In this document: in pieces, positions 3,336-19,559 of the stretch
How the letters are laid out: each line of letters starts with the position of its first letter
Numbering within the stretch: position 1 is the stretch's first letter
Position numbers and translations under genes: made by a program
From: Clostridia bacterium
GTDB taxonomy: Bacteria > Bacillota > Clostridia > Oscillospirales > Acutalibacteraceae
Assembly: GCA_029007095.1 (NCBI GenBank)
Contig: JAQXHF010000050.1
Coordinates: 1,061-65,060 of the forward strand
Length of the DNA: 64,000 nucleotides
Direction of reading: 5' to 3'
Notes under the pieces: model-generated
The model's input: the letters and a program-made list of their open reading frames with translations, nothing else
Databases searched by the model: none
What the model was told of the DNA's origin: nothing

Positions 3336-3467
3336 TTTGATGTGATAAAAAGTTTGTATCGGATTTTTTCCGTTACAAACTTTTTTGCTAATATGAGGGG
3401 AGTTGAACGCGATATACCGAAAACTTGTTTTTGCGGCGACTTTTCACTTTTTGAAAAGAAATTAAAA

Positions 3468-3607: not shown

Positions 3608-3665
3608 AATTTTTTCTGAACTTTATTTATTGTTTACACTATCGTTTATAAGGGAGTATTTATTT

Positions 3666-5510: not shown

Positions 5511-5569
5511 ATTATATATTAAAATTTTGTGAGTATCCGATATTATTTCACTGAACCGTAACCGATATT

Positions 5570-6034: not shown

Positions 6035-6055
6035 AAATTAGAAGAATAAATTGAA

Positions 6056-6250
6056 ATGAAAAACCTTATGTTAGACGGAATGACGAATTGCACGAACATT
6101 ATCGATATACGTAGCAAAGGCGAATACCCCTCTTGTGCATTGTCAAATTTTGCCGAACAGTTATTCATTGACAATGTAAAGTGTTTGATTATGGAATACG
6201 TATTGAAACACATGAAATACATATTGCCAAACTTCGTGGTGATACATTAA
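6056..6250 (+). pseudogene. Possible truncated NADAR (YbiA/DUF1768)-like remnant
   Basis: ...YPSCALSNFAEQLFIDNVKCLIMEYVLKHMKY follows the NADAR pattern FSNFA..I.VDG......SEHYFQAQKF. The ORF stops after 64 aa, and no continuation is seen in any frame. Confidence 0.25.
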
Positions 6251-6484
6251 TACAAAAATCAGGGCTAATATCGGAAACTGATTGCTTTTAAGCTAATAAC
6301 AATTACTCTCGGCGCGAGTGAATATAATTCACTATTGCCGCTTGTAACATTTAATTTAATTCCAAGATAAACTTTTGCAAATATTGTCAAGAAATTATTG
6401 TTTGATATTGGAACTTATAAAACTCTTTATGCAACAATATTTATGGGCGTGTTTATAAAATTTTAACAAATATTTATTAAAATA

Positions 6485-6513
6485 TTGACAGTTTTTGGCT
6501 TCTGTGATAGAAT
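6485..6513 (+). promoter_or_regulatory. Sigma70 promoter with extended -10
   Basis: TTGACA (6485-6490), 17-nt spacer, TGaTAGAAT (6505-6513). Located upstream of the PHP-domain gene. Confidence 0.55.
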
Positions 6514-6551
6514 TTCTAATATAACAAATATTTTGAGAATGGAGTGTTTTT

Positions 6552-8027
6552 ATGTTTAAGAAGATGCTCGCCGTCATACTTGCCGGTATAATGGCAATTC
6601 CTTTTATCGGCGTATCGGTTTCGGCGTCCGATGAAAAGACTGCAAGAAATGCCGACAAAAACTACATAATTACAAATCCGTATGAAGATGTTGACTGGGA
6701 CACATGGGGCGCATACAAGGCGCAGCTTCATTGCCACACCAATGCAAGCGACGGATATCTCCCTATTCACGAATTCGTGCAGATGCATTATGACCTTAAT
6801 TATGATATTGTTGCTCTGACGGATCACGGAACAATCAACAAGGGTTGGAATGTCGAGCCGGATACCGTTCCCTTACTCCGTCTTATTAAAAAGGAAAGAA
6901 CGCATATGGCGGAGATCATTCCGCTTTCCGAGGAGGAGTATGCATCCTATCTTAACGGTACTGCTCCGTCTGAAACCCGTACTCACGAGAACGGTATGCT
7001 TGATGTTCCCAAGGGAATCGAGCTTAATATGGCTACGCCTATTGCAGATTGTCATTTGACAGGTTATTTTTCCGACTATGGTCAGGGGCTTGCCGGTGTT
7101 TTCGGCGATTATGAAACTCCAACGGAAGGCGTTAAGAAAAACGGCGGTATTTCCATGCTTTCCCATGTCGGTGAATATGTTTACACAGACAAGGACAGTG
7201 CTGATCATGTCGGTCAGCTTGTTGACGATTACTATGCCGAGAAATTTGCAAAGTTGTTCATTGACAATCAAGGTTCAAGCGTAGGTATGGGCATAAACAG
7301 TGCAACCGACGCCCATACGCGATGCGACAGAATTCTTTACGATCAAATTTTACAGAAGACAATTCCCAACGGTGTAGTTCCCTGGTCATTCACTTTCTCG
7401 GATTCGCACAATGTCAGATCCCTGAATGACGCATACACAATGCACCTTATGCCGGAGCTTACGATGGATAATTTCCGAACAAGTATGGAAAAAGGTCAGT
7501 TTTTTTCGATTTCTCACTATTCAAACGGAGTTGAGCTTAACGGAATGGCAGAAATGCCCGGTTATAACGACGACTGCGATTCGGTGGATTATAACAGCGA
7601 TACAACGCCTATGGTTACCCGCCTTACCGTTAATCAGGATAATGATACCATTTCTGTCGAGGGTACAAACTTCAATATGATAACATGGGTTTCCAACGGC
7701 AATGTAATTCTCCGCGAGACTGATATTACCGACGGTAAAGCAACTCTCGACCTACATTCCGAACTGCTTGACGAGCCGTATCTCTATGTAAGATTTTACC
7801 TGACCGGTGACAACGGAATCTGCTATTCACAGCCTTTCGTACTTAATATTGAGGGCGAGGAATTTGCTCCCGTCAAGGTTAACAAGGTTTACGATGTGCC
7901 CTGGTTCCTGAGAAAGCTTGTTACCGTGCTTGATGTAGTATTTTTCAGATACAATCCGATTGTGTGGGTATTCAAGTATTTTGCGTTGGGTTACGACGCG
8001 TTGGAAAGAATTTCCGATCCGTTTTAA
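6552..8027 (+). CDS. Secreted/anchored PHP-domain (polymerase and histidinol phosphatase-type) metal-dependent phosphoesterase
   Basis: Signal peptide MFKKMLAVILAGIMAIPFIGVSVSA. PHP motif AQLHCHTNASDGYLPIHEFV...IVALTDHG. Hydrophobic C-terminal segment. Confidence 0.7.
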   Translation: MFKKMLAVILAGIMAIPFIGVSVSASDEKTARNADKNYIITNPYEDVDWDTWGAYKAQLHCHTNASDGYLPIHEFVQMHYDLNYDIVALTDHGTINKGWNVEPDTVPLLRLIKKERTHMAEIIPLSEEEYASYLNGTAPSETRTHENGMLDVPKGIELNMATPIADCHLTGYFSDYGQGLAGVFGDYETPTEGVKKNGGISMLSHVGEYVYTDKDSADHVGQLVDDYYAEKFAKLFIDNQGSSVGMGINSATDAHTRCDRILYDQILQKTIPNGVVPWSFTFSDSHNVRSLNDAYTMHLMPELTMDNFRTSMEKGQFFSISHYSNGVELNGMAEMPGYNDDCDSVDYNSDTTPMVTRLTVNQDNDTISVEGTNFNMITWVSNGNVILRETDITDGKATLDLHSELLDEPYLYVRFYLTGDNGICYSQPFVLNIEGEEFAPVKVNKVYDVPWFLRKLVTVLDVVFFRYNPIVWVFKYFALGYDALERISDPF

Positions 8028-8222
8028 TAAGGACTTCTTTGAATTAGCTAAAACAGAATAAGCAAAATCGAGTTCGTGCGAGTAAAATCGTGCGAACTTT
8101 TTGCGTAATTGTTATTATAAAATTGTATATAAAACACATAACATTGATAGGATTTGAGTCTAAATAACTAATAAAAAAGAATATAAACGACGATTTTCTA
8201 TAAATCCCACAATAATTACTTG

Positions 8223-8251
8223 TTGACATTCCGCGAAATTTGTCGTATTAT
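8223..8251 (+). promoter_or_regulatory. Sigma70-like promoter upstream of the large surface-protein gene
   Basis: TTGACA (8223-8228), 17-nt spacer, TATTAT (8246-8251). Confidence 0.5.
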
Positions 8252-8308
8252 TATGATATTAAGTATAATGGGATAGTGAAAAAATAAATACCGATTGCGA
8301 TTAAACTT

Positions 8309-11300
8309 ATGTTAATGCAGATAATGAAAAAACAGAAAGGAATGATAAAATTGATGGCAAAAAACAAGGGATTTAAAAGATTGTTTAGCCTTATACTGTG
8401 CTGCATTATGATACTCGGCATAGTACCTGCGACTGCTTTTGCGGTTGAAAGCGACAGGACATTTACTGCCGACGAGCAGGAGCAATACGATAAGCAGATC
8501 GTTAAAAGCAGTAAGGACAAGCTTTCCAATGAGATAAAAGAAGACGGAAAGGTCGAGATAAACGAGCAAGTCTTCCCGACCGGTAAAGAGAATGAATTTG
8601 AAATTCAGCTTGATGTTACTACCGACCAGACCGAGCTTCCCGGTGAAGCGTCAGCAGACGCGGCTGTTTACATCATGGTTGACAAGTCGAGCAGTATGAA
8701 CGGTTACAGCCCGGCAGTTCTTGATTCGGAGGAATATAACGCCATACTGGAAAAAGAGAGCATACTCAAAGGCGTCGAATTGCCGATCGGTACTTATCCT
8801 TCAAACGGAGTTTTAACGGCGGTCAAAGAGATATTGGATTCGGTAGACGGTATGACTGATGAAATTCGTCAGGAGGTTTACAACTGCTATCACAGACGAG
8901 CATGGTTTGAGAGAAAGGCTGTTATAAACTTCCTTGATGCTTACACTATGGATATACCGGAGGGTACTCACAGATATTTTGCTCTCGGTTCTTTCCATAA
9001 AGATGCAAAAACCTCTGTTGCATGGGCAGAAGTCGACTCCGATTGGCGTAACAGCTCGATAGCCAATACTGTTTTGGATTATACAAAAGGAACGACTTTT
9101 GAACCGTGGAATTCCTATTTTGCAAATTGGGCATACAATGCCGGATCTTCCGTATATACTAACGGAAGCGGTACAAATATCGAGGGCGCATATATCCTTA
9201 TGGATAATATGATTGCCTCAATTCAAAAAGAACAAAATATACCGGAGGAGAATTTATATTGTTTCTTCATTTCCGACGGTGAGCCTACGGCTTATGCTAC
9301 CGATCCCTCATCAACGGCAATAGATAGAGTTAAAGGTACTTCTATGCCGAGCAACAATCATTTGTATGATGAGACAAGGCTTAATAATATAGCAAGCCGC
9401 GTTAGTGACGAAAGCTATCAGGTTAGCGTTATTTGGTACGGTAACGCCACTCTTGATAACTCAATATATAACCTTGAAAACGGACACACGCTTTACGCCG
9501 ATAATTTCTCCGATGTAGGTACAGAGGAAAAAATTTCAAACTTGGACATCAGTACCGAGTTCATAAGTAAGGCTAAAAAAATAACAAGGATTAACCCTTG
9601 GACGGTTGATTTGTCGCTTGATTCCGCCAGATTTAGTTATGACGGAGTATGCTCTGACAGCCCTTCGCCGGCAAGCACCGTAACTTTAAGCGACGATAAA
9701 ACCGAGCTTGAATGGAATTTGAAACAATGTACTCCGACAACGCTTGAAGACGGACGGAATTATTATCAGATCAATTATCTTGCAACGCTCGATAATACGA
9801 CCGAGGACTTTGTTGAGGAACAGGCGTATCGGACTAACAGCCGCGCGGTTCTGCATTATGCTGTAACCGAAAATGATATTGTAACAAATTTGCGAAATGC
9901 AGAGTTTGATTTGCCTGAGGTCAAAGGCTATCTCGGTGATGTTATTATTAACAAGACCGATGATTCCGGCGCGCCGCTTGAGGGTGCTGTATTCAAACTG
10001 AAAAATGATGAAATCGGCGCAAAAACCGCTGTTTCCGCTGCTGACGGAACGGTAAGCTTTACTTCAATACCGTCTGCGAGAACATATACTCTCAGCGAGG
10101 TATCCGCACCGTTTGGATTCCTTCCCGACACTACCGACCATTCGGTTGAGATAAGATACGGCGTTGTAACATTTGACGGAGTCGATGACTCCCTTACCGT
10201 TGTTAACAAGAGCAACGGAGATATTCAGAAGCTTTCACCGGATTCGGTTGTTATTGATTACGGTATACCCGTCAAAATCAGCGTAGTTGCAAACGACTAT
10301 GTAAAGGATACCGGCAATCTTAATGCGATTTCGGCTTCGGTTACTGACGGAACAGAGCTTAACAATACCGCATACAGCGAGAGCAGACTTGTTAATCCGT
10401 CCCAGACGGTTCAGCTTGTTCACGGTACGGCTCAGATTTCGGGAAATCAGATTATCTATCAGCTAAACGATATGACGATTAACAAGGAAGAAGTCCTTTA
10501 CTACGAATTCCTTGATTCCGACGGAAATTACTATTATACTACCGTTACCGTAATTCCTGCGACGAATATTTATTATGAAGATTCGTTCATAACTTTTAAA
10601 GATAACGGTGATTACAAGTGGGTTACCGAGGGTGAGCCGTACACCGGCAAATTCCAGGCGGAGGACAGACCAGGCACATTTAGCTTGTCCGAGTATGACG
10701 CTAACAATCCTTACGGAAGCGACAGCGCATACAATGACAGCTCCGTAACTTACAGTATGGGCAGCGTTAAGAGCGCGACGGTTGACGCCGGCTCGCTCGG
10801 TAAAGAGCCGACCGCAGAGTTCACTTTCTGCGGAACCGGATTCGATCTGTTCAGCGTGACGAATGCCGAATCGGGCGCAATGCTCGTCGCTGTCTATAAC
10901 GAGAGCGGAACTCGCGTTAAGAATTATGTCGTTCATACATATTACGGATACAGCTACGATGAGGAAGAGGGCAAATTCCTGCCCAATCTTGAATCAACAG
11001 ACGGTCTTTATCAGGTTCCCGTTATCCGTGCAAGAGATTTTGATTACGGAACCTACAAGGTTGTTATCACTCCGAAATACGGCAAGACTTTCGATATGAA
11101 TTACGACGAGAATGCGACCGATAATTCATACAAGCTTTATGTCGATTCGGTAAGAATATATGATCCCGCAGGAAAACAGCCTGATCCTAATTCGGTTGTA
11201 GGCGAAGCGTATATTCAGGATCACGAGTATTTCCCGCAGTATATGGAAATAAGAGATAATATTATTTCTGCTGAGACTTTTTATGATTCTACTGCGGAGC

Positions 11301-12475
11301 TTGACGAAACTCAGTACACAACCGGAGCTGTATTTATAGACGGTATTTCTTCGGTTGACGGTAACGGAATCAGCGACAAGTTCCTTGAAAGCGGACCTAA
11401 CAACGAGGTTTATCTTGCCAAAGGGCAGGCTATCGCGTTCCACCTTACTTCAAACCGTGCGATTGAGCCGGGCGGCAGTCTGGCTCTCGGAATGAAAGTC
11501 GTCGGCGGTGCTACGGACGGTAAGCTTATATGTATGAATTCTAATGAGCTTAGTCCGAACACAATTACTATATGCGGCGGCCACGAGATGTTCAGAAGTC
11601 TTGATTCCTGCGTTGAATGGGAACTTACAGACGGAACATATAAGACTAAGTATCCGATAATTCTTATTAACAGTTCCGACTGCATTATTTCTCTTACTAA
11701 CCTCAAATGGGCATATGCTACAACGGAAGATGAGGCTAATAACGGACTCACCCTTTCTGTAACAAGCTCAACTCCGAAATCGGCTCTGATGGCTGTTCGC
11801 AACTTCGCTCTTAGCGTGAATGAATTTACCCCCGAAAATGTTTCGGCAGAATGGGTAAGTGACAGCGTTTACAGATACGATTCCGCTACACTTAAAATTA
11901 CAACAGACAGCGATGTTGATAAAGTTATAGCGGACGGTAAGGAAATCACTAAGTTCACGACCGATGAAAACGGCTGTCGCGTATGGATATATAAAATTAC
12001 TGCATACAACTGCGGTGAGAAAAAGGTTTCACTTGTCTTTGAAAACAGTAACGGCGTTCAGTCCGCGGCGATTGAAAGTCCGGTGCTTACCGTAACCAAG
12101 ATTCCGATGTCCGAGAGTATCAAGAGCGTCGAGTGGGTTAAATCAAGCGTAAGCCTTAACAGTACTGCTGTGCTTAAAATAACAACAGGATTGAATGTTA
12201 CTTCGGTTAAAATTAACGGTGTTGATACTGCCGAATATGTTTGTATGTATCAGGACGGCACGGAGTACAGCTCGGGAACTAAGGTTTGGACTTACAGATT
12301 CACAGCGTCTGTAAGCGGAAGACAGGCGGTTACCGTTACCGCATATGACAGTGATAATGAATCAAGCGGCAATATCACATCTCCGGTTCTCACGGTTAAC
12401 AGTCGAAGCTCAAATAATTGGCTGACTGCAATATTTATGAAGATAGTCGCGTTTTTCGGAGGTCTGATGAAATGA
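8309..12475 (+). CDS. Large surface protein: signal peptide, vWA domain (MIDAS DKSSS at 8681-8695), CnaB/SpaA-type fold, Ig-like regions, two tandem ~95-aa repeats (about 11818-12100 and 12101-12404), C-terminal TM anchor
   Basis: AAVYIMVDKSSSM...GTNIEGA...FISDGEPT (vWA). GDVIINKTDDSGAPLEGAVFKLKN...TYTLSEVSAPFGF (CnaB). The tail NNWLTAIFMKIVAFFGGLMK is hydrophobic. No LPXTG motif. True start could be anywhere from 8309 to 8354. Confidence 0.85.
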   Translation: MLMQIMKKQKGMIKLMAKNKGFKRLFSLILCCIMILGIVPATAFAVESDRTFTADEQEQYDKQIVKSSKDKLSNEIKEDGKVEINEQVFPTGKENEFEIQLDVTTDQTELPGEASADAAVYIMVDKSSSMNGYSPAVLDSEEYNAILEKESILKGVELPIGTYPSNGVLTAVKEILDSVDGMTDEIRQEVYNCYHRRAWFERKAVINFLDAYTMDIPEGTHRYFALGSFHKDAKTSVAWAEVDSDWRNSSIANTVLDYTKGTTFEPWNSYFANWAYNAGSSVYTNGSGTNIEGAYILMDNMIASIQKEQNIPEENLYCFFISDGEPTAYATDPSSTAIDRVKGTSMPSNNHLYDETRLNNIASRVSDESYQVSVIWYGNATLDNSIYNLENGHTLYADNFSDVGTEEKISNLDISTEFISKAKKITRINPWTVDLSLDSARFSYDGVCSDSPSPASTVTLSDDKTELEWNLKQCTPTTLEDGRNYYQINYLATLDNTTEDFVEEQAYRTNSRAVLHYAVTENDIVTNLRNAEFDLPEVKGYLGDVIINKTDDSGAPLEGAVFKLKNDEIGAKTAVSAADGTVSFTSIPSARTYTLSEVSAPFGFLPDTTDHSVEIRYGVVTFDGVDDSLTVVNKSNGDIQKLSPDSVVIDYGIPVKISVVANDYVKDTGNLNAISASVTDGTELNNTAYSESRLVNPSQTVQLVHGTAQISGNQIIYQLNDMTINKEEVLYYEFLDSDGNYYYTTVTVIPATNIYYEDSFITFKDNGDYKWVTEGEPYTGKFQAEDRPGTFSLSEYDANNPYGSDSAYNDSSVTYSMGSVKSATVDAGSLGKEPTAEFTFCGTGFDLFSVTNAESGAMLVAVYNESGTRVKNYVVHTYYGYSYDEEEGKFLPNLESTDGLYQVPVIRARDFDYGTYKVVITPKYGKTFDMNYDENATDNSYKLYVDSVRIYDPAGKQPDPNSVVGEAYIQDHEYFPQYMEIRDNIISAETFYDSTAELDETQYTTGAVFIDGISSVDGNGISDKFLESGPNNEVYLAKGQAIAFHLTSNRAIEPGGSLALGMKVVGGATDGKLICMNSNELSPNTITICGGHEMFRSLDSCVEWELTDGTYKTKYPIILINSSDCIISLTNLKWAYATTEDEANNGLTLSVTSSTPKSALMAVRNFALSVNEFTPENVSAEWVSDSVYRYDSATLKITTDSDVDKVIADGKEITKFTTDENGCRVWIYKITAYNCGEKKVSLVFENSNGVQSAAIESPVLTVTKIPMSESIKSVEWVKSSVSLNSTAVLKITTGLNVTSVKINGVDTAEYVCMYQDGTEYSSGTKVWTYRFTASVSGRQAVTVTAYDSDNESSGNITSPVLTVNSRSSNNWLTAIFMKIVAFFGGLMK

Positions 12476-12711
12476 AAAAGAAATATATAAAACCTGAAAT
12501 AGGCTTTGAGAGTTTCAGACTTTCAACAGACATTGCCGCCGGCTGCGCTATGCTTGGTCAGCAGGCTCCGAATGCTTGCAAAATATACTATCCCGAATGG
12601 GGTATGACTTTGCTGACGGAGGAATTGTTATGCGACGCGACTCCGCCGAGCGGAACCGATTATGTTTGCTATCATGTTCCTGTTGCTGATACTAATGTTT
12701 TTGAATCATAA
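12472..12711 (+). CDS. 79-aa Cys-containing peptide, candidate RiPP precursor
   Basis: ATG 12472 overlaps the upstream TGA (ATGA). GGAGG lies 8 nt upstream of the ATG. Sequence: MKKKYIKPEIGFESFRLSTDIAAGCAMLGQQAPNACKIYYPEWGMTLLTEELLCDATPPSGTDYVCYHVPVADTNVFES. It has four Cys and a C-terminal Ser, and lies directly upstream of rSAM/SPASM and PqqD genes. Confidence 0.6.
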   Translation: MKKKYIKPEIGFESFRLSTDIAAGCAMLGQQAPNACKIYYPEWGMTLLTEELLCDATPPSGTDYVCYHVPVADTNVFES

Positions 12712-12756
12712 TTTAATTTGACGGAAGACAGGGAACTCTTTTCTTGCGTCAGAATA

Positions 12757-12792
12757 GGTCTGTCGCTTACTGCGGCAGACCTTGAGTTTTTT
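12757..12792 (+). terminator. Hairpin plus T-tract after the peptide gene (attenuator-like partial terminator)
   Basis: GGTCTGTCGC-ttac-TGCGGCAGACC with one mismatch, then ttgagTTTTTT. The RBS AGGAG of the next gene follows immediately. Confidence 0.5.
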
Positions 12793-12804
12793 CAGGAGTT
12801 TACG

Positions 12805-13509
12805 ATGAAGAAAAAGGTTATAATTATAATAATTGCAGTTGCTGTTTTGTGTGCGGCGGCTCTCGCTGTTGCCGTTTTTTTAAATGACGGCGAAAATGAA
12901 AACAATACCGATAGCGGCGTTGCGGCAAGTCAGCAGGATTTCGATTTGCCTTATGCACTTCCGAACGGCTGCGTGATTACCGAAATCAAATCATACAACG
13001 GACCTTTTGTAGAGGACGGAAGCGGCGAAGAGAAAACAAATGTGACGGCAATCGTTATAAAAAATGATACAGGCAAAAATTTTCAGTATATAGATTTTAA
13101 TTTAAAATTCGAGGGTGCGGATAAAGATTATAATTTCAAAATTACAACTCTTTTTGACAACAGTTCTATGACGGTACTTGAAAGCAATGCGGCTGATTTT
13201 ATATCGGATAAAATAACTCACGCCGATATTTCACAGAGCATTGAATTTGCTTCTCAGCCTACCGTTCATCCGCAGGAGCTTGAAATATCGGTTGGCGACG
13301 GAATGATGAATGTTAAAAATATTTCCGGTGAGGATATAAACGGAAATATTTATGTGTATTATAAGATTGCAGACGGTGACGATTGGTTCGGCGGAATCAC
13401 CTATCGCTCTGCGGTGAGCGGATTAAAGAACGGCGAGCTTAAACAAATTTCAACAAGTCACTTCAAAAGTGAAACCTGTAAGGTTGTGTTTACCGAATAT
13501 GATAAGTAG
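12805..13509 (+). CDS. Signal-anchored extracytoplasmic protein of unknown function
   Basis: RBS AGGAG then ATG 12805. MKKKVIIIIIAVAVLCAAALAVAVFL is an N-terminal TM segment, followed by a beta-rich soluble domain. Confidence 0.65.
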   Translation: MKKKVIIIIIAVAVLCAAALAVAVFLNDGENENNTDSGVAASQQDFDLPYALPNGCVITEIKSYNGPFVEDGSGEEKTNVTAIVIKNDTGKNFQYIDFNLKFEGADKDYNFKITTLFDNSSMTVLESNAADFISDKITHADISQSIEFASQPTVHPQELEISVGDGMMNVKNISGEDINGNIYVYYKIADGDDWFGGITYRSAVSGLKNGELKQISTSHFKSETCKVVFTEYDK

Positions 13510-14341
13510 CTTTTACTCAATAGCAGATGTGATTTTAAGGCTCGACAGCGACGGATTGATTAAAGCAAACGGAATGCTCAGAAAGTTTGCGGTAAGTCGG
13601 ACGAGCGCAGATGTAACCGTGCGAGTCTTTAATACAGGCAGTCTCCCCGAAAAAGGCGAAAAGCTTGTTTACGGTGACGGCAGACGCTCGTTTTATGACA
13701 ACAACGGAACTTATCAGATGTTTTGCTCGTATTTTGATTCTGCTTTGAATGATTATGTTCCGTATTCCTGCCTGATTGGTTCCGGCGCGGAATATGAGCT
13801 GTATATAAAATATAAAAACGGCGAAATTTGGGATACAATGCTTTTGGACGCACTCGATTTTCCGAATATACTGCTCGATTTCGGAGCTGTTATTATGCAT
13901 TGCTCGTTTATAATCAAGGACGGTAAAGCCATACTTTTTACCGCAGATAAGCAGGTCGGCAAATCTACGCAGGCGGCTCTTTGGGAAAAATATTCGGGCG
14001 CTGAGATAATCAACGGCGACCGTGCGGCCGTTAAGCTTAAAGGCGGCGAGCTTTATGCTTACGGAGTTCCTTACTGCGGTTCGTCGGATATAAGCGAAAA
14101 CAAATCTGCACGGATAGCGGCTGTTGTCGAACTGTCGCAGAGTAAAAATAATGCGATTTACAAGCTTGACGAGGCGGCCGCATTCCGCTGCGTCCTTGGT
14201 AAATTCAGTTATAACCTGAACGATATGGATAAAGCTGTTAAGGCGGCCGATATGGCGGCTTTGATTTCAAGAAGTAAAGTCTATCATTTATCTTGTCTGC
14301 CCGACGAGAGCGCAGTAAGATTATTGGAGGAAGAGCTTTGA
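13499..14341 (+). CDS. HPr kinase-like P-loop protein (HprK-related kinase family)
   Basis: HCSFIIKDGKAILFTADKQVGKSTQAALW..GAEIINGDRAAV parallels the HprK core HG.LV...G.GVLI.G.SG.GKS..AL.L...GH.L..DD. Start is uncertain: ATG 13499 or GTG 13469. Confidence 0.6.
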   Translation: MISSFYSIADVILRLDSDGLIKANGMLRKFAVSRTSADVTVRVFNTGSLPEKGEKLVYGDGRRSFYDNNGTYQMFCSYFDSALNDYVPYSCLIGSGAEYELYIKYKNGEIWDTMLLDALDFPNILLDFGAVIMHCSFIIKDGKAILFTADKQVGKSTQAALWEKYSGAEIINGDRAAVKLKGGELYAYGVPYCGSSDISENKSARIAAVVELSQSKNNAIYKLDEAAAFRCVLGKFSYNLNDMDKAVKAADMAALISRSKVYHLSCLPDESAVRLLEEEL

Positions 14342-14343
14342 AA

Positions 14344-15510
14344 ATGCTGAATGAACAGAAAAATAATTTTCGTTATGCTTCGTCAGAACCGGAAATTTCA
14401 TTTTTGCTCCATGAAAAAGGGCGAAGACTCGGCATACCGGTTTCTGGTACTTTTGAGCTTTGTTCACGATGCAATTTTAATTGCAAAATGTGCTATATTC
14501 ACAGAATGGGCGATACTGCGGAAAACGAGCTGACGGCTGAACAATGGCTCAAACTCGGAGAGAAGGCACGAGATGCCGGAACGGTTTTTCTGCTTCTTAC
14601 GGGAGGCGAACCGCTTATCAGATCCGATTTTAAGCAAATATATTCCGGACTTAAAAGTTTTGGCTTGGTTGTTTCGATAAATACAAACGGATTTCTTCTT
14701 TCCGGCGAGATGACGGAATTTTTTATAAAAAATCCTCCTTACAAACTGAATATAAGCCTTTACGGTTCAAACGACGATATCTACCAAAAGCTGTGCGGCG
14801 TTCCGGCGTATTCGGTTGTTATAGATAACATAAAGAAGCTGAAAGCTCACGGAATTCAGGTGAAGCTCAACATAAGTATTACTCCCGAAAACTGCGGTCA
14901 GATAAAGGAGATATATTCAATAGTAAAAGAATTAGGCATTAACGCTAAGGCTACAACCTATATGTATCCGCCGATTCGTACCGCCGGCGGCAAAACCGGC
15001 GAAAATTCCGGAAGATTATCTGCCGCCGAAGCTGCACAATACCGTGTTGAATGGGACGAATTGAGATATGGGAAGAAGCAGTTTATAAGCCGAATCGACG
15101 CTATGGAAAAAGGCTTGGCGGTTTATGAAAACGAATGTATAGAACCGAGCGAAGACGCAGACAGGATGCGTTGTCGGGCAGGAAGCAGTAGCTTCTGGAT
15201 AAATTACAGAGGTGAAATGAGCGCCTGCGGAGTAATGACCAACCAGGTCTTTAACACTATGGAGCTTGGCTTTGACGAAGCTTGGAAAAAAGTTCGCGAA
15301 AGTACCGCGTGCATACGACTTCCTAAGGAATGTACCGTATGTAAATATCGAAATTTTTGCAATGTTTGCGCTGCGGTTTGTTACAGCGAGAGCGGAAAAA
15401 CGGACAAAGTTCCCGATTATGTATGCGAGCTTTCCCGACTTACCGCGGTATATTCAAGCAAAAGAAAAACGGAACTTCTGAACGGAGATGATTTACAAAA
15501 TGAAGATTAA
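14344..15510 (+). CDS. Radical SAM/SPASM-domain peptide-modifying enzyme
   Basis: CNFNCKMC (CX3CX2C), GGEPL. C-terminal Cys-rich SPASM region CRAGSSSFWINYRGEMSACG...CTVCKYRNFCNVCAAVCY. ATG 14344 follows GGAGG. Confidence 0.85.
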   Translation: MLNEQKNNFRYASSEPEISFLLHEKGRRLGIPVSGTFELCSRCNFNCKMCYIHRMGDTAENELTAEQWLKLGEKARDAGTVFLLLTGGEPLIRSDFKQIYSGLKSFGLVVSINTNGFLLSGEMTEFFIKNPPYKLNISLYGSNDDIYQKLCGVPAYSVVIDNIKKLKAHGIQVKLNISITPENCGQIKEIYSIVKELGINAKATTYMYPPIRTAGGKTGENSGRLSAAEAAQYRVEWDELRYGKKQFISRIDAMEKGLAVYENECIEPSEDADRMRCRAGSSSFWINYRGEMSACGVMTNQVFNTMELGFDEAWKKVRESTACIRLPKECTVCKYRNFCNVCAAVCYSESGKTDKVPDYVCELSRLTAVYSSKRKTELLNGDDLQNED

Positions 15511-15766
15511 AAAAGAAGTTGTTTTCCGTTCCGTTGCAGGAGAGAATATGCTTATACCTGTCGGTGAAACGGTAGGGGAATACAACGGTATTTTTTCGAT
15601 GACTGAGGTAGGAGCCGAGATTTGGCAGGCTATCGAAAACGGCAGTAATGAAAAGCAGATTGTCGATTTGATTTCATCTGAGTATGAAATTGATTCCGAT
15701 ACGGCAAAAGCAGATGTGAAAAGTTTTATTGATAAACTTTGTGAATTCGGAATTGTTGAGAGATAA
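15500..15766 (+). CDS. PqqD-family protein (RRE-type peptide chaperone)
   Basis: ...GIFSMTEVGAEIWQAIENGSNEKQIVDLISSEYEIDSDTAKADVKSFIDKLCEFGIVE fits the PqqD pattern. The gene overlaps the end of the rSAM gene. Confidence 0.7.
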   Translation: MKIKKEVVFRSVAGENMLIPVGETVGEYNGIFSMTEVGAEIWQAIENGSNEKQIVDLISSEYEIDSDTAKADVKSFIDKLCEFGIVER

Positions 15767-15770
15767 AAAA

Positions 15771-15796
15771 TCCCGCTTGCATGTCAGCAGGCGGGA
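15771..15796. terminator. Bidirectional terminator between convergent genes
   Basis: TCCCGCTTGC-atgtca-GCAGGCGGGA, a 10-bp stem. An A-run precedes it, giving a T-run on the minus strand. The T-tract on the plus strand is weaker. Confidence 0.55.
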
Positions 15797-15816
15797 CTTT
15801 ATATTTGGTTTTGAAA

Positions 15817-16380
15817 TTAAACGATAAAACCTGTTTTGTCATTAAGCAAGTTTTTCATTTCTTCTTTTTTAGCGTCGTCAATTTTATCAACTTTATATTC
15901 TTCACCGAATACGGGACTGGACTGCATTAGTTCTTTTTTACTTTCAAAGTATTCGTCAAATGTTTTGATAACTCTGGCGGGATTGCCGACCGCAACGCTG
16001 TTGGAGGGAATATCTTTTGAAACAACGCTTCCTGCTCCGATTACAACCTTGTCGCCTATGGTTACTCCGGGCAGAACGGTTGTACCTGCGCCGATAAAAA
16101 CATCGTTGCCTATCGTTACTTTACCGAGCATTGTGTACCCCAATGTGTTTTTCAGGCTTGCATCGTGCGCTATTATATTTACACGCGGAGCCATGGTAAC
16201 CCGGTCGCCTATTGTTATAAGCCAGCAATGTCCCATATCAAAGGTGCAGTTTTCCATAATATGACAGTTTTCACCTATTGTCAGTCCTGTGTCCTTGAGG
16301 ATTTCAAGCTGAGGACGAGGATCAATGCCGAAAATTTTATTTTTGATTTTTAAAAGTAAATTACCGATGAAGTTACGCAT
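15817..16380 (-). CDS. Hexapeptide-repeat (LbH) acetyltransferase, maltose/galactoside O-acetyltransferase-like
   Basis: GDRVTMAPRVNIIAH...IGNDVFIGAGTTVLPGVTIGDKVVIGAGSVVSKDIPSNSVAVGNPARVI. Start set at ATG 16380. Confidence 0.75.
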   Translation of the reverse strand: MRNFIGNLLLKIKNKIFGIDPRPQLEILKDTGLTIGENCHIMENCTFDMGHCWLITIGDRVTMAPRVNIIAHDASLKNTLGYTMLGKVTIGNDVFIGAGTTVLPGVTIGDKVVIGAGSVVSKDIPSNSVAVGNPARVIKTFDEYFESKKELMQSSPVFGEEYKVDKIDDAKKEEMKNLLNDKTGFIV

Positions 16381-16538
16381 AAATATCCCTGCCAAAAAAC
16401 AATTACAACTGAAATTCTACAATATTAGTTGTTGTTTGTCAAGATACGCAAACAACTTGCATTTAGACAATAAAGGGAATGTAAAAAACTTTCGTTTTTT
16501 ACAGCGCTTTTTAAGGAAATAGGAAAAAAGATGAAGAA

Positions 16539-16626
16539 CGGACAAACTGAGCAAAATCAAGATTTTTGTCTTGATTTTGTCTGCCCGACGGCGTACAAAG
16601 GTACGCCGAGTGGCGAAGTTTGTTCG
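16539..16626. other. Structured intergenic element (three-helix junction) overlapping a 32-aa Cys-peptide ORF (16531-16629, +)
   Basis: Outer stem 16539-16548/16617-16626 (10 bp, one G-T). Hairpin AAAATCAAGA/TCTTGATTTT (16553-16578). Hairpin GGCGTAC/GTACGCC (16590-16607). Confidence 0.35.
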
Positions 16627-16768
16627 TAGTATAAAACATAAAAATATTTATATTTTACACTTTAAAGTAATTATATAGGGTTCTTACTGTTTTCAATACC
16701 GAAGAACCCCATTATTGTATTATACGGTTTTATACGGTCTTCGCTTTTTTTACATCCCCTTTTAATAT

Positions 16769-17380
16769 TTAATCGTTTTCTGTAATGAGCGTTCTAACTC
16801 TTAAAGGAATTTGCATTTCGTCAGCGATTTTCTGACATTCTGTGATTTCTTCCTTTGTAATTATATCAACAACGGTAAACTTGACCGTGGGAATGTATTT
16901 TTTACATTCTTTTGCGAAATTAAGCAAAGACGAATACGATTCTTTGCCGAATTTAGGGCGAGAAACCTCTGCATAGCGTTCAGCCGACGGAGCGTTAAGG
17001 CTTATCGAAACGGTGTCGACTATTCCTTTAAGCAAAGGCGCAACTGATTTACCGTTTATCAGGTCGGCAAGGCCGTTAGTGTTGAGCCTGATTTTAATAT
17101 CATATTTTGATTTGAGATATTCTGCGCTTTTGATAAGGTTATCAAGAGCCTGAGTCGGTTCTCCGTAACCGCAGTAAATGACTTCTTTATACGGCGAAAA
17201 ATCAAACTTGTCGATTTCCGCTTTGATTTCGTCGATAGTGGGATCTTTTGAGAGCCAAAGCGAATCGGCAGAGCCTAAACCGTCGCCGTTGCTTCGTATG
17301 CAGAATGTGCAGGAGCAGGGACATTTATTGGTAATGTTCATATAGACGCTGCCGCCGTAGGTGTAAACAATGTCAGCCAT
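16769..17380 (-). CDS. Small radical SAM protein (resembles the TatD-associated radical SAM family)
   Basis: MADIVYTYGGSVYMNITNKCPCSCTFCIR... includes CX3CX2C. About 200 aa. GYGEP motif present. Confidence 0.65.
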   Translation of the reverse strand: MADIVYTYGGSVYMNITNKCPCSCTFCIRSNGDGLGSADSLWLSKDPTIDEIKAEIDKFDFSPYKEVIYCGYGEPTQALDNLIKSAEYLKSKYDIKIRLNTNGLADLINGKSVAPLLKGIVDTVSISLNAPSAERYAEVSRPKFGKESYSSLLNFAKECKKYIPTVKFTVVDIITKEEITECQKIADEMQIPLRVRTLITEND

Positions 17381-17382
17381 AA

Positions 17383-17952
17383 TTAAAAACTCCTTAACTT
17401 TGATTTAATGTTGATTTTATCAAGAGCAACCGCGAGTACGAAGAAAACAACCGCACTTCCTGCCGCCTGAATGACATTTCCGACGAGGCAGTATGTTGCC
17501 GAAACCCACGGAGTTGCACTGAAAAAGTAGCTTGTGAATTGTGAAAAGCTTGCGGTAGAACCGAGAGCAACGATTACAACCTCAGCTATGTAATAGCCGA
17601 TAACCGTTATCGCAGAGCCGATTGCGACAGCGACGCAGTTGCGTACATTGAGAATCTTGTCTTTCTTCGATGTGAAGGAGGGAACAAGGAGAGCCTTGAT
17701 GATAAGAGTGGGCAGTATATACATAGTATAACCGCCGATAGCATCCGAAAGCATACCGCCGATTCCGGCGCTGAGCATAGCGAGCGGAGTCGGAAGAAGA
17801 CAGGCGGCAATATATATCATAGCGTCACCGAGATGAATGTATCCGTTGTGCGACGGAATTTTTACAAAATATGTCAGCGCAAAGGTCATAGCCGCAAACA
17901 GAGAAGCGAGAATAATTTGTCTTAGCAATGTTTTTTCGTTGTTTTTTTTCAT
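17383..17952 (-). CDS. ECF-transporter S (substrate-capture) component, substrate unknown
   Basis: About 190 aa with six hydrophobic helices. ...YIHLGDAMIYIAACLLP...GGMLSDAIGG... is typical of ECF S components. It sits 2 nt upstream of the rSAM gene. Confidence 0.65.
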   Translation of the reverse strand: MKKNNEKTLLRQIILASLFAAMTFALTYFVKIPSHNGYIHLGDAMIYIAACLLPTPLAMLSAGIGGMLSDAIGGYTMYILPTLIIKALLVPSFTSKKDKILNVRNCVAVAIGSAITVIGYYIAEVVIVALGSTASFSQFTSYFFSATPWVSATYCLVGNVIQAAGSAVVFFVLAVALDKINIKSKLRSF

Positions 17953-18073
17953 AAATGAATTCAGCCTTTCTTTGACAAGAACTTGTCTTTTTTGATTTGT
18001 TGGTATATAATATACAATAAGTTTGTCATTATTAAAATAGACAAAAACAATAATTTTAACAAGGACAGTTTAT

Positions 18074-19411
18074 ATGAAAAAATTATTTTCATCATATTCC
18101 GACGAGCCGTTATATATACAGTTATATATGTATTATCGAGATATGATAATTAACGGTGAAATAAAAAGCGGTGATAAGCTGCCGTCCGTCAGGAAGTGCG
18201 CGCTTGAATACGGTATAAGCAAGATGACGGTTGAAAACGCGTATATGCAGCTTGTGTCCGAGGGATATATCTATGCCAAAAGTCAAAGCGGCTATTATGT
18301 GAGCAAAATTTCGGACCTTGCCGATAACGGTGAATATGACCGACTGCGTACAGAAAACATTAACTCGAACAATGCGGTGAATGAACCGACGGTATCGGCG
18401 GCAGAGAATGAATGTTTTAATTTTAAGCTTTGGCAGAAATATGTCAAAAATGCTCTGCGGTGTGAGGACAGACTGCTGACATACGGAGAATATCAGGGAG
18501 AGCGTGATTTGCGTGAGGCGCTCAGCGAATACGCGAGCAAACAGAGGGGCGTTGTATGCAGCGCCGACGATATAGTTGTTGGCGCGGGAGTTCAGAACCT
18601 GCTTCAACTCCTGTGCAATCTTGACGCGGACAAAGGCACAGTCCTTTTTACAGGTACGCCGTTTATTCAGGGACGCACGGTTTTTGAGGATTACGGATAT
18701 GAGGTAACTGACAGTAAGGCTCGCGCTCGGGAGGGCAAGCTTAATTTTATATATACATCGCCGTCAAGGTCAAACAAATTTAATTCAGTTATGAATATTT
18801 CCGACAGGATAGATATGCTGAATTTTGCGGTGGAGCGCGGAAGCATTGTTATAGAAGATGATTATGACAGCGAATTTTGCTATTTTGCCCGTCCCGTCCC
18901 GTCGTTACAGGGCCTTGACAGGGGAGAGAATGTTGCATATATCGGTACATTTTCTAAGTTGTTGCTGCCGTCAATCCGAATAAGCTTTATGGTATTGCCG
19001 CAGAAGTTGCGTGAAAAATATTCCGAGAGAGGCAGATTTTACAATCAGACGGCTTCAAAGACAGAGCAGATTGCGCTTGCGAGGTATATAACCGACGGGA
19101 AGCTTGTAACCCAGATACGCAAGGCGAGAAAGCATTACGAGAGTAAAGCTGAGCAAATTATCGACGAAATTGAAAAGCAAACAAATCCGTTAAAGGTCGG
19201 TATAAGCGATTCGGGATTTATGCTGTGGTTTGAATACGAAACTGTAAATACGGCGGCTGAAATCGAAAGGAATTTATGCGAAAAAAACATTAAAATCAAG
19301 CAAATTGAGCAGATTGACCAAAATAGAGTTAGATTATTTGTAAATTCCACTACAATAAATATTGATGAAATTGGAAATTTTGTAAATTTTATAAAAAATA
19401 CACTAACTTGA
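18074..19411 (+). CDS. MocR/PdxR-type regulator (GntR HTH fused to an aminotransferase-like PLP domain)
   Basis: N-terminal PLYIQLYMYYRDMIINGEIKSGDKLPSVRKCALEYGISKMTVENAYMQLVSEGYI (GntR wHTH). The C-terminal ~330 aa has a fold-type-I aminotransferase pattern including ...YIGTFSKLLLPSIRISF. Confidence 0.85.
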   Translation: MKKLFSSYSDEPLYIQLYMYYRDMIINGEIKSGDKLPSVRKCALEYGISKMTVENAYMQLVSEGYIYAKSQSGYYVSKISDLADNGEYDRLRTENINSNNAVNEPTVSAAENECFNFKLWQKYVKNALRCEDRLLTYGEYQGERDLREALSEYASKQRGVVCSADDIVVGAGVQNLLQLLCNLDADKGTVLFTGTPFIQGRTVFEDYGYEVTDSKARAREGKLNFIYTSPSRSNKFNSVMNISDRIDMLNFAVERGSIVIEDDYDSEFCYFARPVPSLQGLDRGENVAYIGTFSKLLLPSIRISFMVLPQKLREKYSERGRFYNQTASKTEQIALARYITDGKLVTQIRKARKHYESKAEQIIDEIEKQTNPLKVGISDSGFMLWFEYETVNTAAEIERNLCEKNIKIKQIEQIDQNRVRLFVNSTTINIDEIGNFVNFIKNTLT

Positions 19412-19559
19412 ACCGAAAAAATCTACACCCAAAAATATGAAAAAAGTATTTACAAATTATAATTTTTTTGATAAGATTAACATAAGCCTAAGTATGGGGA
19501 TTTGTGCAGGTATGCAATCTGCATAGATTACGGCAATAACATAGGAGGTGTTTCTTACC

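Follow-up and report, generated by a model that had tools for sequence, protein, structure and literature searches.

The window, a 64,000-nucleotide stretch of DNA, contains a unit of six genes (8309-15766, all on the + strand) that, judging from sequence, looks like an unnamed peptide-modifying pathway. The reading to which we give about even weight is that this unit is an operon for the joint production of a large surface protein, associated with the membrane through its C-terminus, and a small partner peptide that is stapled enzymatically. A preliminary description had reported an uncharacterised RiPP-like cassette of five genes beginning at 12472. The core of that description stands: the five ORFs are real, co-directional and tightly packed, and the NCBI gene calls have identical starts for all of them (12472-15766). 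The extent does not, because a sixth gene, encoding a 1388-aa surface protein and almost obligately linked to the rest, was overlooked; the unit begins at 8309. This linkage alters the likely biology of the cassette.

The large surface protein (8309..12475, +) was recognised through Pfam SpaA and GBS104-like_Ig matches. It consists, in order, of a signal peptide, a VWA-like region, the GBS104-like Ig and SpaA domains, a conserved module, two Ig-like repeats and a hydrophobic/aromatic C-terminal tail. LPXTG is absent from the window's protein. The VWA-like region was read by eye from a DxSxS motif, Pfam VWA matches being found only in homologues, and together with the GBS104-like Ig and SpaA domains it makes up a variable passenger. 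Depending on the locus, the N-terminal passenger is a VWA adhesin or a GH20 glycosidase, and the module is constant. The module is specific to the cassette and unannotated (~450 aa, residues ~680-1140; 10346..11728, +). Its motifs are TVTVIPATxIYYEDSF, QAEDRPG, FTFxGTGFD, DAVRIYDPAG, and GPNNEVYLAxGQAIAF. Searches of Pfam and of PDB sequences returned no match to it. The AF2 model of the module is an all-beta fold (pLDDT 79), for which Foldseek gave only bicupin matches at low TM (~0.2).

The link between the surface protein and the peptide is visible from both sides. Surface-protein homologues lie directly 5' of the peptide gene in 53/64 loci, and the peptide gene is directly 3' of the module-bearing gene in 65 of the 66 module-anchored loci. 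In the window the stop codon of the surface-protein gene and the start codon of the peptide gene overlap (ATGA), and across loci the distance from stop to start takes no values other than -3/-6 or +13 to +21 nt. Further downstream, the anchored-protein and HprK-like genes overlap by 11 nt, a 2-nt gap separates the HprK-like gene from the radical SAM (rSAM) gene, and the rSAM and PqqD genes overlap by 11 nt. The full set occurs in identical order in 50 of the 64 rSAM-anchored loci with enough upstream sequence and in 26 of the 27 module-anchored metagenome loci; the arrangement is far beyond chance. The co-occurrence of the small ORF, the HprK-like gene and the anchored protein with the rSAM, which had been suggested as a check, holds in most of the loci examined. 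Three loci contain the same gene set with the order shuffled, and some contain only ScmC-rSAM-PqqD, with no peptide nearby. Around the 87 + 80 loci examined there was no further conserved gene, and no conserved exporter, protease or cyclase was found there, in agreement with the earlier remark that the cassette has no leader peptidase, ABC exporter or lasso cyclase. The cassette is present in hundreds of Oscillospirales species and is widespread, not scattered. The six-gene unit is common among gut Clostridia.

A promoter-like site, TTGACA-17-TATTAT (8223..8251, +), was found by a consensus scan with 11/12 matches; as a pattern match alone, it is a putative operon promoter. A GC-rich hairpin with an 11-bp stem and a T-run lies 3' of the peptide gene (12756..12792, +), and the intergenic sequence following that gene folds at -36.1 kcal/mol (z = -5.1). 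This hairpin, read as an attenuator or terminator, has an equivalent of different sequence after the peptide gene in 51/60 loci. The operon ends in a terminator-like hairpin (15771..15796, +; 10-bp stem, 7 GC pairs, T-rich tail). A weaker hairpin with a T-run (6 bp, 4 GC) shares part of this sequence on the opposite strand, and the next gene after the operon lies on the opposite strand.

The precursor-like peptide (79 aa; 12472..12711, +) is annotated by NCBI as a 'hypothetical protein' (MDD6275822.1), and its ATG is preceded by GGAGG at ~10 nt. Residues 1-24 (MKKKYIKPEIGFESFRLSTDIAAG) form a conserved leader with a YxxPx(I/L) motif, as the leader-like N-terminus noticed earlier had suggested. 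Residues 25-79 form an acidic core of ~55 residues with the four reported cysteines (Cys25, Cys35, Cys53, Cys65), a CYHVP motif and the C-terminus NVFES. The peptide family comprises at least 346 clusters; the leader is conserved, and the core is variable with an architecture that is kept over its full length. Among 150 family representatives, the leader motif YxxPx[ILVMF], with conserved Y5 and P8, is found in 138, exactly four cysteines in 124, and a near-invariant C-terminal Ser in 145; the C-terminal motif is [VLI]-F-x-S. The cysteines are spaced by 11-12, 17-19 and ~12 residues, and 159 of 167 sequences place the fourth exactly 13 residues before their end. The aromatic patch KIYYPEWG singled out in the preliminary description is conserved in the closest subfamily but not in the rest of the family. 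Conservation of the small ORF beside rSAM homologues was confirmed in 60 of 73 loci. One divergent locus, L006, has the family's leader in front of an unrelated core.

The radical SAM/SPASM enzyme (388 aa; 14344..15510, +; Pfam Radical_SAM 84 bits) contains the expected CX3CX2C motif (C43-x3-C47-x2-C50), which is invariant among homologues, and eight SPASM cysteines (C277, C295, C330, C333, C339, C342, C346, C361). Seven to eight of these are kept across homologues, and C277, C295, C330, C333, C339, C342, and C361 are invariant. A PDB profile search gave SkfB as its closest solved relative (74 bits). An identity as an anaerobic sulfatase maturase was rejected, as anSME scored 34 bits in the same search; no sulfatase gene is present in the neighbourhood of the cassette. 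All named maturase models scored far below their cut-offs (bits/cut-off: SkfB 74.9/300, StsB 60.9/625, AlbA 54.5/850, WgkB 58/650), as did PqqE (71.2/381) and MftC (84.4/265), and QhpD was absent from the best 25 of 69 NCBIfam matches. The last gene encodes a stand-alone PqqD/RRE-type protein (88 aa; 15500..15766, +), an assignment upheld by Pfam PqqD (59.5 bits, cut-off 23.4) and present in 72/81 loci; its best NCBIfam match is lasso_PqqD_Bac (41.7 bits, cut-off 80). In the NCBIfam search as a whole none of the window's genes reaches the cut-off of any named family, the best scores being AhbD 102/500, ScmC 19/125 and lasso PqqD 42/80, which agrees with the earlier label of the cassette as uncharacterised.

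The ScmC/HprK-related P-loop protein (280 aa; 13499..14341, +) starts at 13499, not 13469, according to NCBI MDD6275824.1. In the numbering of the alignment (translation of window positions 13502-14341), H133, GKST (153-156; GK[ST]) and D173-R174 are invariant in the family. The family profile detects L. casei HprK/P in the PDB (1jb1, E = 0.003) across the H...GxxGKS...DR core, and 8/20 members match Pfam Hpr_kinase_C. NCBIfam matches, all below cut-off, were to ScmC (17/20, best E = 2e-11), HprK_rel_A (15/20) and HPr(Ser) kinase (5/20), and homologues bear precomputed PF27840 ScmC matches. The likeness to the HPr kinase core noted previously is real and remote. The membrane-anchored extracytoplasmic protein (234 aa; 12805..13509, +), also anticipated, was characterised by its AF2 model and its conserved motifs FVEDGSDE, YVYYK, and GGITYR. 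In the model (mean pLDDT 90.8) an N-terminal helix (residues 3-25), read as a TM helix, is joined by a linker to a tandem pair of Ig/FN3-like beta-sandwich domains. Many homologues contain a lipobox Cys, and the protein is present in 63 of 75 loci.

We propose that the surface protein and the peptide are co-produced, abundantly, and that the four genes 3' of the hairpin would be expressed through read-through. The PqqD protein would bind the 24-residue leader through YxxPx(I/L), and the rSAM/SPASM enzyme would then install intramolecular cross-links in the core, most likely thioethers from the four cysteines. The HprK/ScmC-like protein would probably phosphorylate the C-terminal Ser on its side chain, as kinases of this family do in lasso pathways (see below). 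The modified peptide would finally act at the cell envelope with the surface-protein module and the anchored two-domain protein, not as a free antibiotic. Both chemistries, and the location of the peptide, are what we infer from sequence. In favour of this reading are the retained gene order, together with the shuffled loci, the constant module joined to changing passengers, the narrow stop-to-start distances, the recurrent hairpin, the conserved leader with its variable core, the fixed Cys spacing, the leader kept at L006, the enzyme set with its invariant motifs, the lack of other conserved neighbours, and the lasso and QhpC/QhpD precedents given below. Several observations count against it. 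At L006 the peptide lacks Cys altogether and does not end in Ser, although the locus has the same enzymes; three loci (L029, L045, L047) are without an HprK-like gene yet their peptides end in Ser, and some loci, as mentioned, have the three enzyme genes without the peptide. The HprK-like protein of the window itself scores weakly against HprK-type models, neither the module nor the anchored protein has an informative structural homologue, and it is not apparent how the peptide could act outside the cell, because exporters and leader proteases are not conserved nearby.

The operon could instead encode a conventional secreted RiPP, a bacteriocin or signal of the sacti-/ranthipeptide type, with the anchored lipoprotein providing LanI-like immunity or binding and the surface-protein gene tied to it by shared regulation only. 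Such systems are classically recognised by the combination of a Cys-containing precursor, an rSAM/SPASM enzyme and an RRE; a hairpin 3' of the precursor gene is typical for RiPP operons, and the lipoprotein adjoins the precursor gene. The missing exporter and protease speak against it, although to our knowledge SCIFF-type clusters also lack exporters. A free antibiotic is nevertheless not the best reading, because the surface protein is almost obligately linked and the cassette occurs in hundreds of Oscillospirales species: whichever partner is taken as the starting point, the link to one surface-protein module is nearly obligate, the stop and start codons overlap, and the spread is broad and not patchy. 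The architecture of the core is conserved throughout, unlike hypervariable bacteriocin cores. The anchored protein had no Foldseek match in the PDB at E <= 0.001, and there was no lantibiotic-immunity protein among its 50 best Foldseek matches. We regard this explanation as unlikely. An improbable one is that the rSAM and PqqD proteins modify the surface or anchored protein, the small ORF being a chaperone or assembly factor and not the substrate. The surface protein is indeed the most tightly linked partner, and SPASM enzymes of the anSME type act on proteins, but the kinship of this rSAM to anSME is distant. The surface and anchored proteins have export signals and neither conserved Cys nor a leader-like motif (the surface-protein tails are 0% Cys), whereas the small ORF has conserved Cys and the YxxPxL-type leader expected for an RRE ligand.

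Two further readings seem to us very improbable, and to the same degree. A small cofactor or metabolite might be made from the peptide, with its C-terminal residues alone being used, along the lines of PQQ and mycofactocin. PqqD, rSAM/SPASM and a small peptide indeed recur in PqqA/D/E and MftA/B/C, the peptide family has an invariant [VLI]-F-x-S C-terminus, and the weak NCBIfam matches include MftC and PqqE. Their scores are far under the cut-offs, however, no peptidase or further tailoring gene is conserved, and four cysteines with their spacing kept through a 55-residue core would be needless in a discarded scaffold; the surface-protein link would also be left without a rationale. Alternatively, four conserved Cys in an acidic protein of ~80 residues might mean that the peptide binds a metal or Fe-S cluster and assists the enzymes, for instance by donating electrons, without being their substrate. 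We know of no ferredoxin, rubredoxin or zinc-ribbon motif with such Cys spacing, while a substrate role fits both the L006 variant, which is free of Cys, and the pairing of a constant leader with a changing core. It is also with the surface-protein gene, not the enzyme genes, that the peptide gene is coupled.

Among known systems, SynChlorMet (ScmC, ScmD, ScmE, and ScmF; NCBIfam TIGR04248-04251), which is bioinformatically defined and experimentally uncharacterised, shares the combination of an HprK-related ScmC-type P-loop protein, a PqqD-like protein and a radical SAM/SPASM enzyme, and ScmC is the model matched by most HprK-like members. The window's proteins nonetheless fall far under the equivalog cut-offs (ScmC 18.9/125, ScmD 17.8/100, ScmE 82.7/400, ScmF 64.7/400), and there is a single rSAM per cassette here and two there. 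The present cassette also differs in its ~80-aa precursor family, its anchored beta-sandwich protein, its obligately linked surface-protein module and its taxonomic range, gut Oscillospirales. The sacti-/ranthipeptide maturases (SkfB, AlbA, StsB, CteB/PapB) are similar in rSAM/SPASM architecture, in the RRE and in a Cys-bearing precursor with a leader encoded nearby. The precursor here is far longer and conserved throughout, no named maturase model is reached, and the accessory genes and surface-protein link are unlike those of any described cluster.

HPr-kinase homologues phosphorylate the C-terminal Ser of linear lasso precursors (PMC8498205), a precedent for the serine step. As in paeninodin-type phosphorylated lasso clusters, the cassette pairs an HprK-family protein, here with a predicted kinase role, with a precursor ending in Ser. 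The leader YxxPx(L/I) and the best PqqD score, against the lasso B1 model, are also lasso-like. The differences are an rSAM/SPASM enzyme in place of a B2 protease, C cyclase and ABC exporter, a long core with four Cys, and a PqqD score under the B1 cut-off. QhpC is a small acidic polypeptide with a leader and four Cys that is cross-linked internally by the rSAM/SPASM enzyme QhpD and then becomes the gamma subunit of quinohemoprotein amine dehydrogenase, a larger extracytoplasmic protein of the same operon (PMC7876137). The window likewise encodes a small acidic four-Cys peptide with a leader, for which cross-linking is predicted, an rSAM/SPASM enzyme and a large extracytoplasmic protein in one operon. 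Homologues of QhpA, QhpB, QhpE, QhpF, and QhpG and a dedicated exporter or protease were not found among the neighbours, the rSAM is not a QhpD equivalog, the RRE is a separate PqqD protein, and the partner is a non-enzymatic beta-sandwich module on adhesin or GH20 passengers. By analogy, the logic of the cassette would still be closest to that of QhpD, which staples a small subunit of a larger extracytoplasmic enzyme.

The five co-directional genes at 12472-15766 that the preliminary description took for a RiPP-like cassette are all present in the ORF list of the window. That reading was right in kind but incomplete, since the large protein encoded upstream was left out of the unit. The operon spans 8309-15766 on the forward strand and encodes a surface protein (8309-12475), a 79-aa peptide with four Cys (MKKKYIKPEIGFESF..., 12472-12711), an anchored protein (12805-13509), an HprK-like P-loop protein (13499-14341), a radical SAM (rSAM)/SPASM enzyme (14344-15510) and a stand-alone PqqD protein (15500-15766). 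An exact look-up found the same genes called by NCBI in a 'Clostridia bacterium' MAG (locus tags PUB20_03235 to about 03255), with products of 79, 280, 388 and 88 aa named 'hypothetical protein', 'radical SAM protein' or 'PqqD family protein'. The starts of the HprK-like (13499) and PqqD (15500) genes follow these calls.

The gene set is conserved. Three loci with homologues of the rSAM enzyme show the same gene order, with a very large protein in front whose stop overlaps the start of the small ORF. An rSAM-alignment scan of species-representative genomes gave 483 matching stretches, nearly all labelled Oscillospiraceae, Acutalibacteraceae, Faecousia, Fimenecus or Oscillibacter, and 80 loci were taken from these. 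Components were detected with HMMs built from the window proteins and counted among loci with enough flank. The HprK-like gene and PqqD each lie beside the rSAM gene in 72/81 loci, the anchored protein in 63/75 and the large protein in 53/64, while the peptide, as the cassette reading required, recurs in other genomes (60 of 73 loci). HprK-like protein, anchored protein, peptide and large protein are all present in order in 50 of 64. All-against-all clustering of every ORF of at least 90 aa in the rSAM-anchored loci uncovered no further conserved neighbour; the next-commonest family is limited to 12 loci and lies about 7 kb off. A conserved exporter, protease, cyclase or regulator is therefore lacking, which upholds the earlier remark that leader peptidase, exporter and cyclase are missing near the cassette. 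The window itself has unrelated flanking genes: GH127, a PHP-domain protein, a hexapeptide acetyltransferase on the opposite strand, a TIGR04100 rSAM, an ECF S-component and a GntR/aminotransferase.

The linkage was also surveyed in reverse, independently of the rSAM enzyme. Only residues ~620-1270 of the 1388-aa surface protein are consistently found upstream of the peptide gene, and alignment of the C-terminal regions of the large proteins revealed one strongly conserved block of about 450 residues (the module, 10346-11728). A metagenome scan with the module matched at least 415 stretches, and 80 of these were retained for analysis. The peptide gene is immediately downstream of the module protein in 65 of the 66 loci with enough downstream sequence, and peptide, anchored protein, HprK-like protein and rSAM enzyme are all present in 26 of 27 module-anchored loci. 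In three loci (L106, L110, L122; L numbers denote homologous loci from other genomes or metagenomes) the order is module protein, anchored protein, PqqD, peptide, HprK-like protein, rSAM enzyme, with the set unchanged, which argues for functional linkage. The link between the surface-protein module and the cassette is near-obligate and unprecedented.

Surface-protein and peptide genes are closely coupled. In 60/60 loci examined, the peptide gene either overlaps the stop of the large protein (distance -3 or -6 nt) or starts +13 to +21 nt after it; in the window the two form an ATGA overlap, with GGAGG upstream of the peptide start. Directly 3' of the peptide gene is a GC-rich hairpin with an 11-bp stem (12756-12782) followed by a T-run (12756-12792 together, forward strand), and the intergenic fold has a free energy of -36.1 kcal/mol (z = -5.1). 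An equivalent hairpin of unrelated sequence follows the peptide gene in 51 of 60 loci. A promoter-like site was found by pattern match before the large gene (8223-8251, forward strand) and a terminator-like hairpin after the PqqD gene (15771-15796, forward strand). Judging from these signals, the surface protein and the peptide would be co-produced abundantly and the four downstream genes expressed by read-through.

The 58 unique peptides of the locus sets align end to end. Searched exhaustively, 1.84 billion cluster representatives yielded at least 346 relatives at E <= 1e-3, all of 69-92 aa, and among these 346 no fusion to another domain. No Pfam or NCBIfam model matches the peptide above threshold. 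Its consensus is MKKxYxKPx(I/L)xFExFxLSxNIAxG-C...C...F...C...CYHVPxxxxN(L/V)Fx-S. YxxPx[ILVMF] is found near the N-terminus in 138 of 150 representatives, exactly four Cys in 124 of 150, and a C-terminal Ser in 145 of 150, the other five having one additional residue past it. Of 167 sequences, 124 have their first Cys at position 25 and 159 have their last one exactly 13 residues from the end; the spacings between Cys are 11-12, 17-19 and ~12 residues. Acidic residues outnumber basic ones in the core (D+E 13.4% vs K+R 2.9%). The aromatic patch KIYYPEWG singled out earlier does occur in the window peptide, but the family alignment confines it to the closest subfamily. A Sec or lipoprotein signal was considered for the leader, which ends in a lipobox-like I-A-A-G-C, yet on inspection the would-be hydrophobic core contains conserved acidic residues and the idea was rejected.

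The divergent locus L006 separates leader from core. Its coupled small ORF keeps the leader (MKEYVKPDFDV...NIA), while the core is unrelated to that of the family, contains no Cys and has ...DDRWWG as its last residues. A constant leader combined with an exchangeable core is the hallmark of an RRE-recognised precursor; from Sumida et al. 2019 and related work, YxxPxL is reportedly the motif recognised by lasso B1/PqqD proteins. The L006 cassette (1-7399) has a 44-aa coupled ORF, the same anchored, ScmC-like, rSAM and PqqD proteins as elsewhere, and a giant upstream protein without the module; this variant may have a different cross-link chemistry. Duplications were also seen. L020 has an extra divergent 94-aa peptide paralogue after PqqD (11960-12241) with the same leader, six Cys and the end ...NFFSS, and L019 (a Fimenecus MAG) has two complete cassettes in tandem (3716-11098 and 13614-21095) whose peptides differ (...NVFES vs ...NIFES).

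The enzyme assignments proposed from the sequence, rSAM/SPASM and stand-alone PqqD, are supported by Pfam (Radical_SAM 84 bits, PqqD 59.5 bits). The window rSAM protein has C43-x3-C47-x2-C50 and a Cys-rich C-terminus; across the family CX3CX2C is invariant, as is the SPASM pattern C277-x12-G-x4-C295 ... C330-x2-C-x5-C-x2-C-x3-C346 ... C361. Its NCBIfam scores (bits/cut-off) are all weak and undiscriminating: AhbD 102/500, NirJ2 88/500, MftC 84/265, ScmE 83/400, SkfB 75/300, PqqE 71/381. Against PDB the family profile ranks SkfB at the top (74 bits), then MoaA, PqqE and SuiB, with the sulfatase maturase anSME at just 34 bits. The enzyme is therefore not a sulfatase maturase and probably represents a distinct SPASM clade. 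An anti-phage role was rejected, as PADLOC finds only generic viperin-core similarity. The best NCBIfam model for the PqqD protein is the Bacillota lasso B1 chaperone (41.7 bits, cut-off 80).

The P-loop protein, described earlier as collinear with the HPr kinase core, does align as a family profile with L. casei HprK/P 1jb1 (E = 0.003) through ...LIADDR, pairing the kinase-core His, P-loop and Asp-Arg. H133, G153-K-S/T-T-Q-A, N-G-D173-R174 and G..GSS are invariant in 20 members. Among these 20, 17 match NCBIfam ScmC (best 2e-11), 15 HprK_rel_A, 12 HprK_rel_B, 8 Pfam Hpr_kinase_C and 5 HPr(Ser) kinase. The window protein itself has no Pfam or NCBIfam match above threshold and reaches just 19 bits with the ScmC model, whose cut-off is 125. 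The protein represents a new subfamily of the ScmC/HprK-related group.

The anchored protein (234 aa) has the hydrophobic N-terminus expected of a membrane-anchored product, and in many homologues a lipobox Cys replaces the plain anchor. No Pfam or NCBIfam model matches it above threshold. In its AF2 model (36-sequence alignment, pLDDT 90.8) a disordered linker joins an N-terminal helix (3-25) to two beta-sandwich domains. Foldseek against PDB found nothing at E < 1e-3, only generic tandem Ig/FN3-like matches, and a fold assignment was dropped; the nearest shapes are transglutaminase tandem beta-barrel domains, GH2 Ig-like domains and RbmA. The protein is probably an extracytoplasmic, non-enzymatic binding scaffold.

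The module of the surface protein is marked by the motifs TVTVIPATxIYYEDSF, QAEDRPG, YGYDxAY, FTFxGTGFD, LYQVPV, DAVRIYDPAG, GPNNEVYLAxGQAIAF and ILSLTNxK, and sequence-profile searches of Pfam and PDB gave no match to it. Its AF2 model is all-beta (pLDDT 79). A fold assignment was abandoned here too, as Foldseek returns only bicupin/vicilin seed proteins at TM ~0.2; these generic double jelly-roll matches are the sole ones and their TM is low, so no function follows. The N-terminal passenger varies. In the window it comprises a VWA-like region (DxSxS motif read by eye), a GBS104-like Ig domain and SpaA; Pfam VWA or VWA_2 is matched in L004, L011 and L023, and a GH20 catalytic domain is the passenger in L054, L074, L088 and L089. 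GH20 and module are on one ORF in L054 and L074 and on separate ORFs in L088 and L089, sharing a frame with one stop codon between in L089 (6964-7001) and lying in different frames in L088 (~7001). This split could be sequencing error, pseudogene or recoding. The C-terminus of the surface proteins is a short tail in which Trp, Phe, Ile, Lys and Arg abound and Cys and LPXTG are absent (...IALWRNLF, ...TWWNWWF; in the window ...WLTAIFMKIVAFFGGLMK). This tail may act as a membrane-interface anchor; in one locus a classical TM segment followed by RRKTR takes its place. A motif common to tail and peptide C-terminus was rejected, since no more than 11 of 101 tails contain [ND][LIVM]F, which is hence not general.

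Some loci and neighbours depart from this pattern. L027, L037, L053, L062 and L072 (Faecousia and others) have ScmC-like, rSAM and PqqD genes only, and no peptide, anchored protein or module was found within 4-10 kb upstream; the substrates of their enzymes may be encoded elsewhere in those genomes. L038 (7797-8909) and L039 (7131-8216), both Acutalibacteraceae loci without peptide or module, have a second rSAM gene just upstream of the anchored-protein gene, whose product (...CNLSCEYCFYRD...) looks anSME-like. The cassette-bearing MAGs of L055, L074 and L033 are labelled Bacteroidaceae, Akkermansia or Erysipelotrichaceae. In cassette architecture and in the subtypes of peptide and surface protein, these loci match Oscillibacter/Clostridiales loci, and the surface-protein tails of L074 and L078 are almost identical; mis-binning is more likely than true presence outside Oscillospirales. 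In the window, a second, unrelated rSAM gene and an ECF-type riboflavin-transporter S component lie on the reverse strand (16769-17380 and 17383-17952). This rSAM protein is a member of NCBIfam TIGR04100 (307.5 bits, cut-off 262) and is not conserved beside the cassette in other loci. A 1190-aa secreted protein (19548-23120, forward strand) has no Pfam match at E <= 1e-3, and its C-terminus (GDVNGDAFVDAQDAVIMRAY...GDVDYNNILGIGDAKMIEKAGL) resembles by eye a dockerin with two repeats; cohesin-dockerin display may be in use in this organism. Upstream of the operon (3630-5510, forward strand) lies the gene of a GH127 beta-L-arabinofuranosidase (324 bits), which together with the GH20-passenger surface proteins elsewhere fits a glycan-foraging gut organism.

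The mechanism proposed here starts from direct observations, namely the gene set, the two-way linkage, the coupling distance, the hairpin, motif conservation, the cofactor-binding Cys and conservation of the HprK core. PqqD would bind the peptide leader via YxxPx(I/L) and the rSAM/SPASM enzyme would cross-link the core. The four invariant Cys and their acidic, D/E/T-rich surroundings make thioethers, as in sacti-/ranthipeptides and QhpC, the likely cross-links. The HprK-like protein would phosphorylate the invariant C-terminal Ser, a step with direct precedent in the HPr-kinase homologues of paeninodin-type lasso clusters (PMC8498205). The modified peptide may work with the surface-protein module and the anchored protein; the closest parallel for this is QHNDH, in which the rSAM enzyme QhpD staples the small, four-Cys, leader-bearing QhpC, which is then a subunit of the periplasmic enzyme of the same operon (PMC7876137). 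Several observations speak against this mechanism: no export route or leader protease is visible, three loci without the HprK-like gene nonetheless have peptides ending in Ser, the L006 core is Cys-free, and a minority of loci consist of ScmC, rSAM and PqqD only.

A broader reading is tentative and, in our estimate, rather unlikely. The cassette might be an unrecognised envelope system of gut Oscillospirales, in which RiPP-type maturation serves surface-protein assembly or anchoring and the product is not an antibiotic. Surface proteins with swappable passengers (VWA adhesins, GH20 glycosidases) and a common module and aromatic tail would depend on a co-translated peptide, stapled by the rSAM enzyme and phosphorylated at its C-terminal Ser. 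The peptide would work alongside a dedicated lipoprotein of two domains, as an adaptor or structural subunit, and thioether staples would stand in lieu of disulfides in strict anaerobes.

Enzymes of the rSAM/SPASM type paired with RRE proteins are a main source of new peptide chemistry. The present family is large, with 483 stretches in species-representative genomes, at least 415 in metagenomes and no fewer than 346 clusters of the peptide. It is restricted to Clostridia of gut and rumen that are abundant and poorly cultured, has no NCBIfam name, and its members are 'hypothetical' in NCBI annotation. On this architecture, four fixed Cys should be cross-linked, the invariant C-terminal Ser should gain 80 Da and the leader should be recognised via YxxPx(I/L). 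An HprK/ScmC-type protein is here paired with an identifiable, likely substrate, which suggests a possible function for ScmC-type proteins. Neither for the SynChlorMet cassette nor for the 'HprK-related kinase A/B' systems do we know of a described substrate, and literature searches on them found nothing. If the module coupling reflects a physical partnership, RiPP-type machinery would build part of the cell envelope in anaerobes that dominate the gut, with consequences for adhesion and for the foraging of glycans by GH20 passengers.

Among known systems, NCBIfam and Pfam scans of all components gave nothing over cut-off bar generic Radical_SAM, PqqD, SpaA and GBS104-Ig, and every equivalog model tested was far under its cut-off, in line with the initial failure to place the peptide by eye in a named precursor family. 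By its sequences the cassette appears to work like an RRE-dependent rSAM RiPP pathway, yet it is in no named family. Literature searches on ScmC/SynChlorMet, HPr kinase with rSAM/PqqD, HprK with SPASM, and Oscillospiraceae rSAM RiPPs, partly swamped by other senses of 'SCMC' and 'spasm/ripple', returned no description of it. Haft's SynChlorMet cassette (ScmC, PqqD-like ScmD, rSAM/SPASM ScmE/F) comes closest among named systems; to our knowledge it is uncharacterised and has no known precursor. Phosphorylated lasso peptides share the logic of a kinase and a C-terminal Ser, but the cassette is without their B2 and C genes; QHNDH shares the logic of a stapled small subunit but no proteins. What is likely to be new here is the near-obligate surface-module link, together with a likely substrate for a ScmC-type protein.
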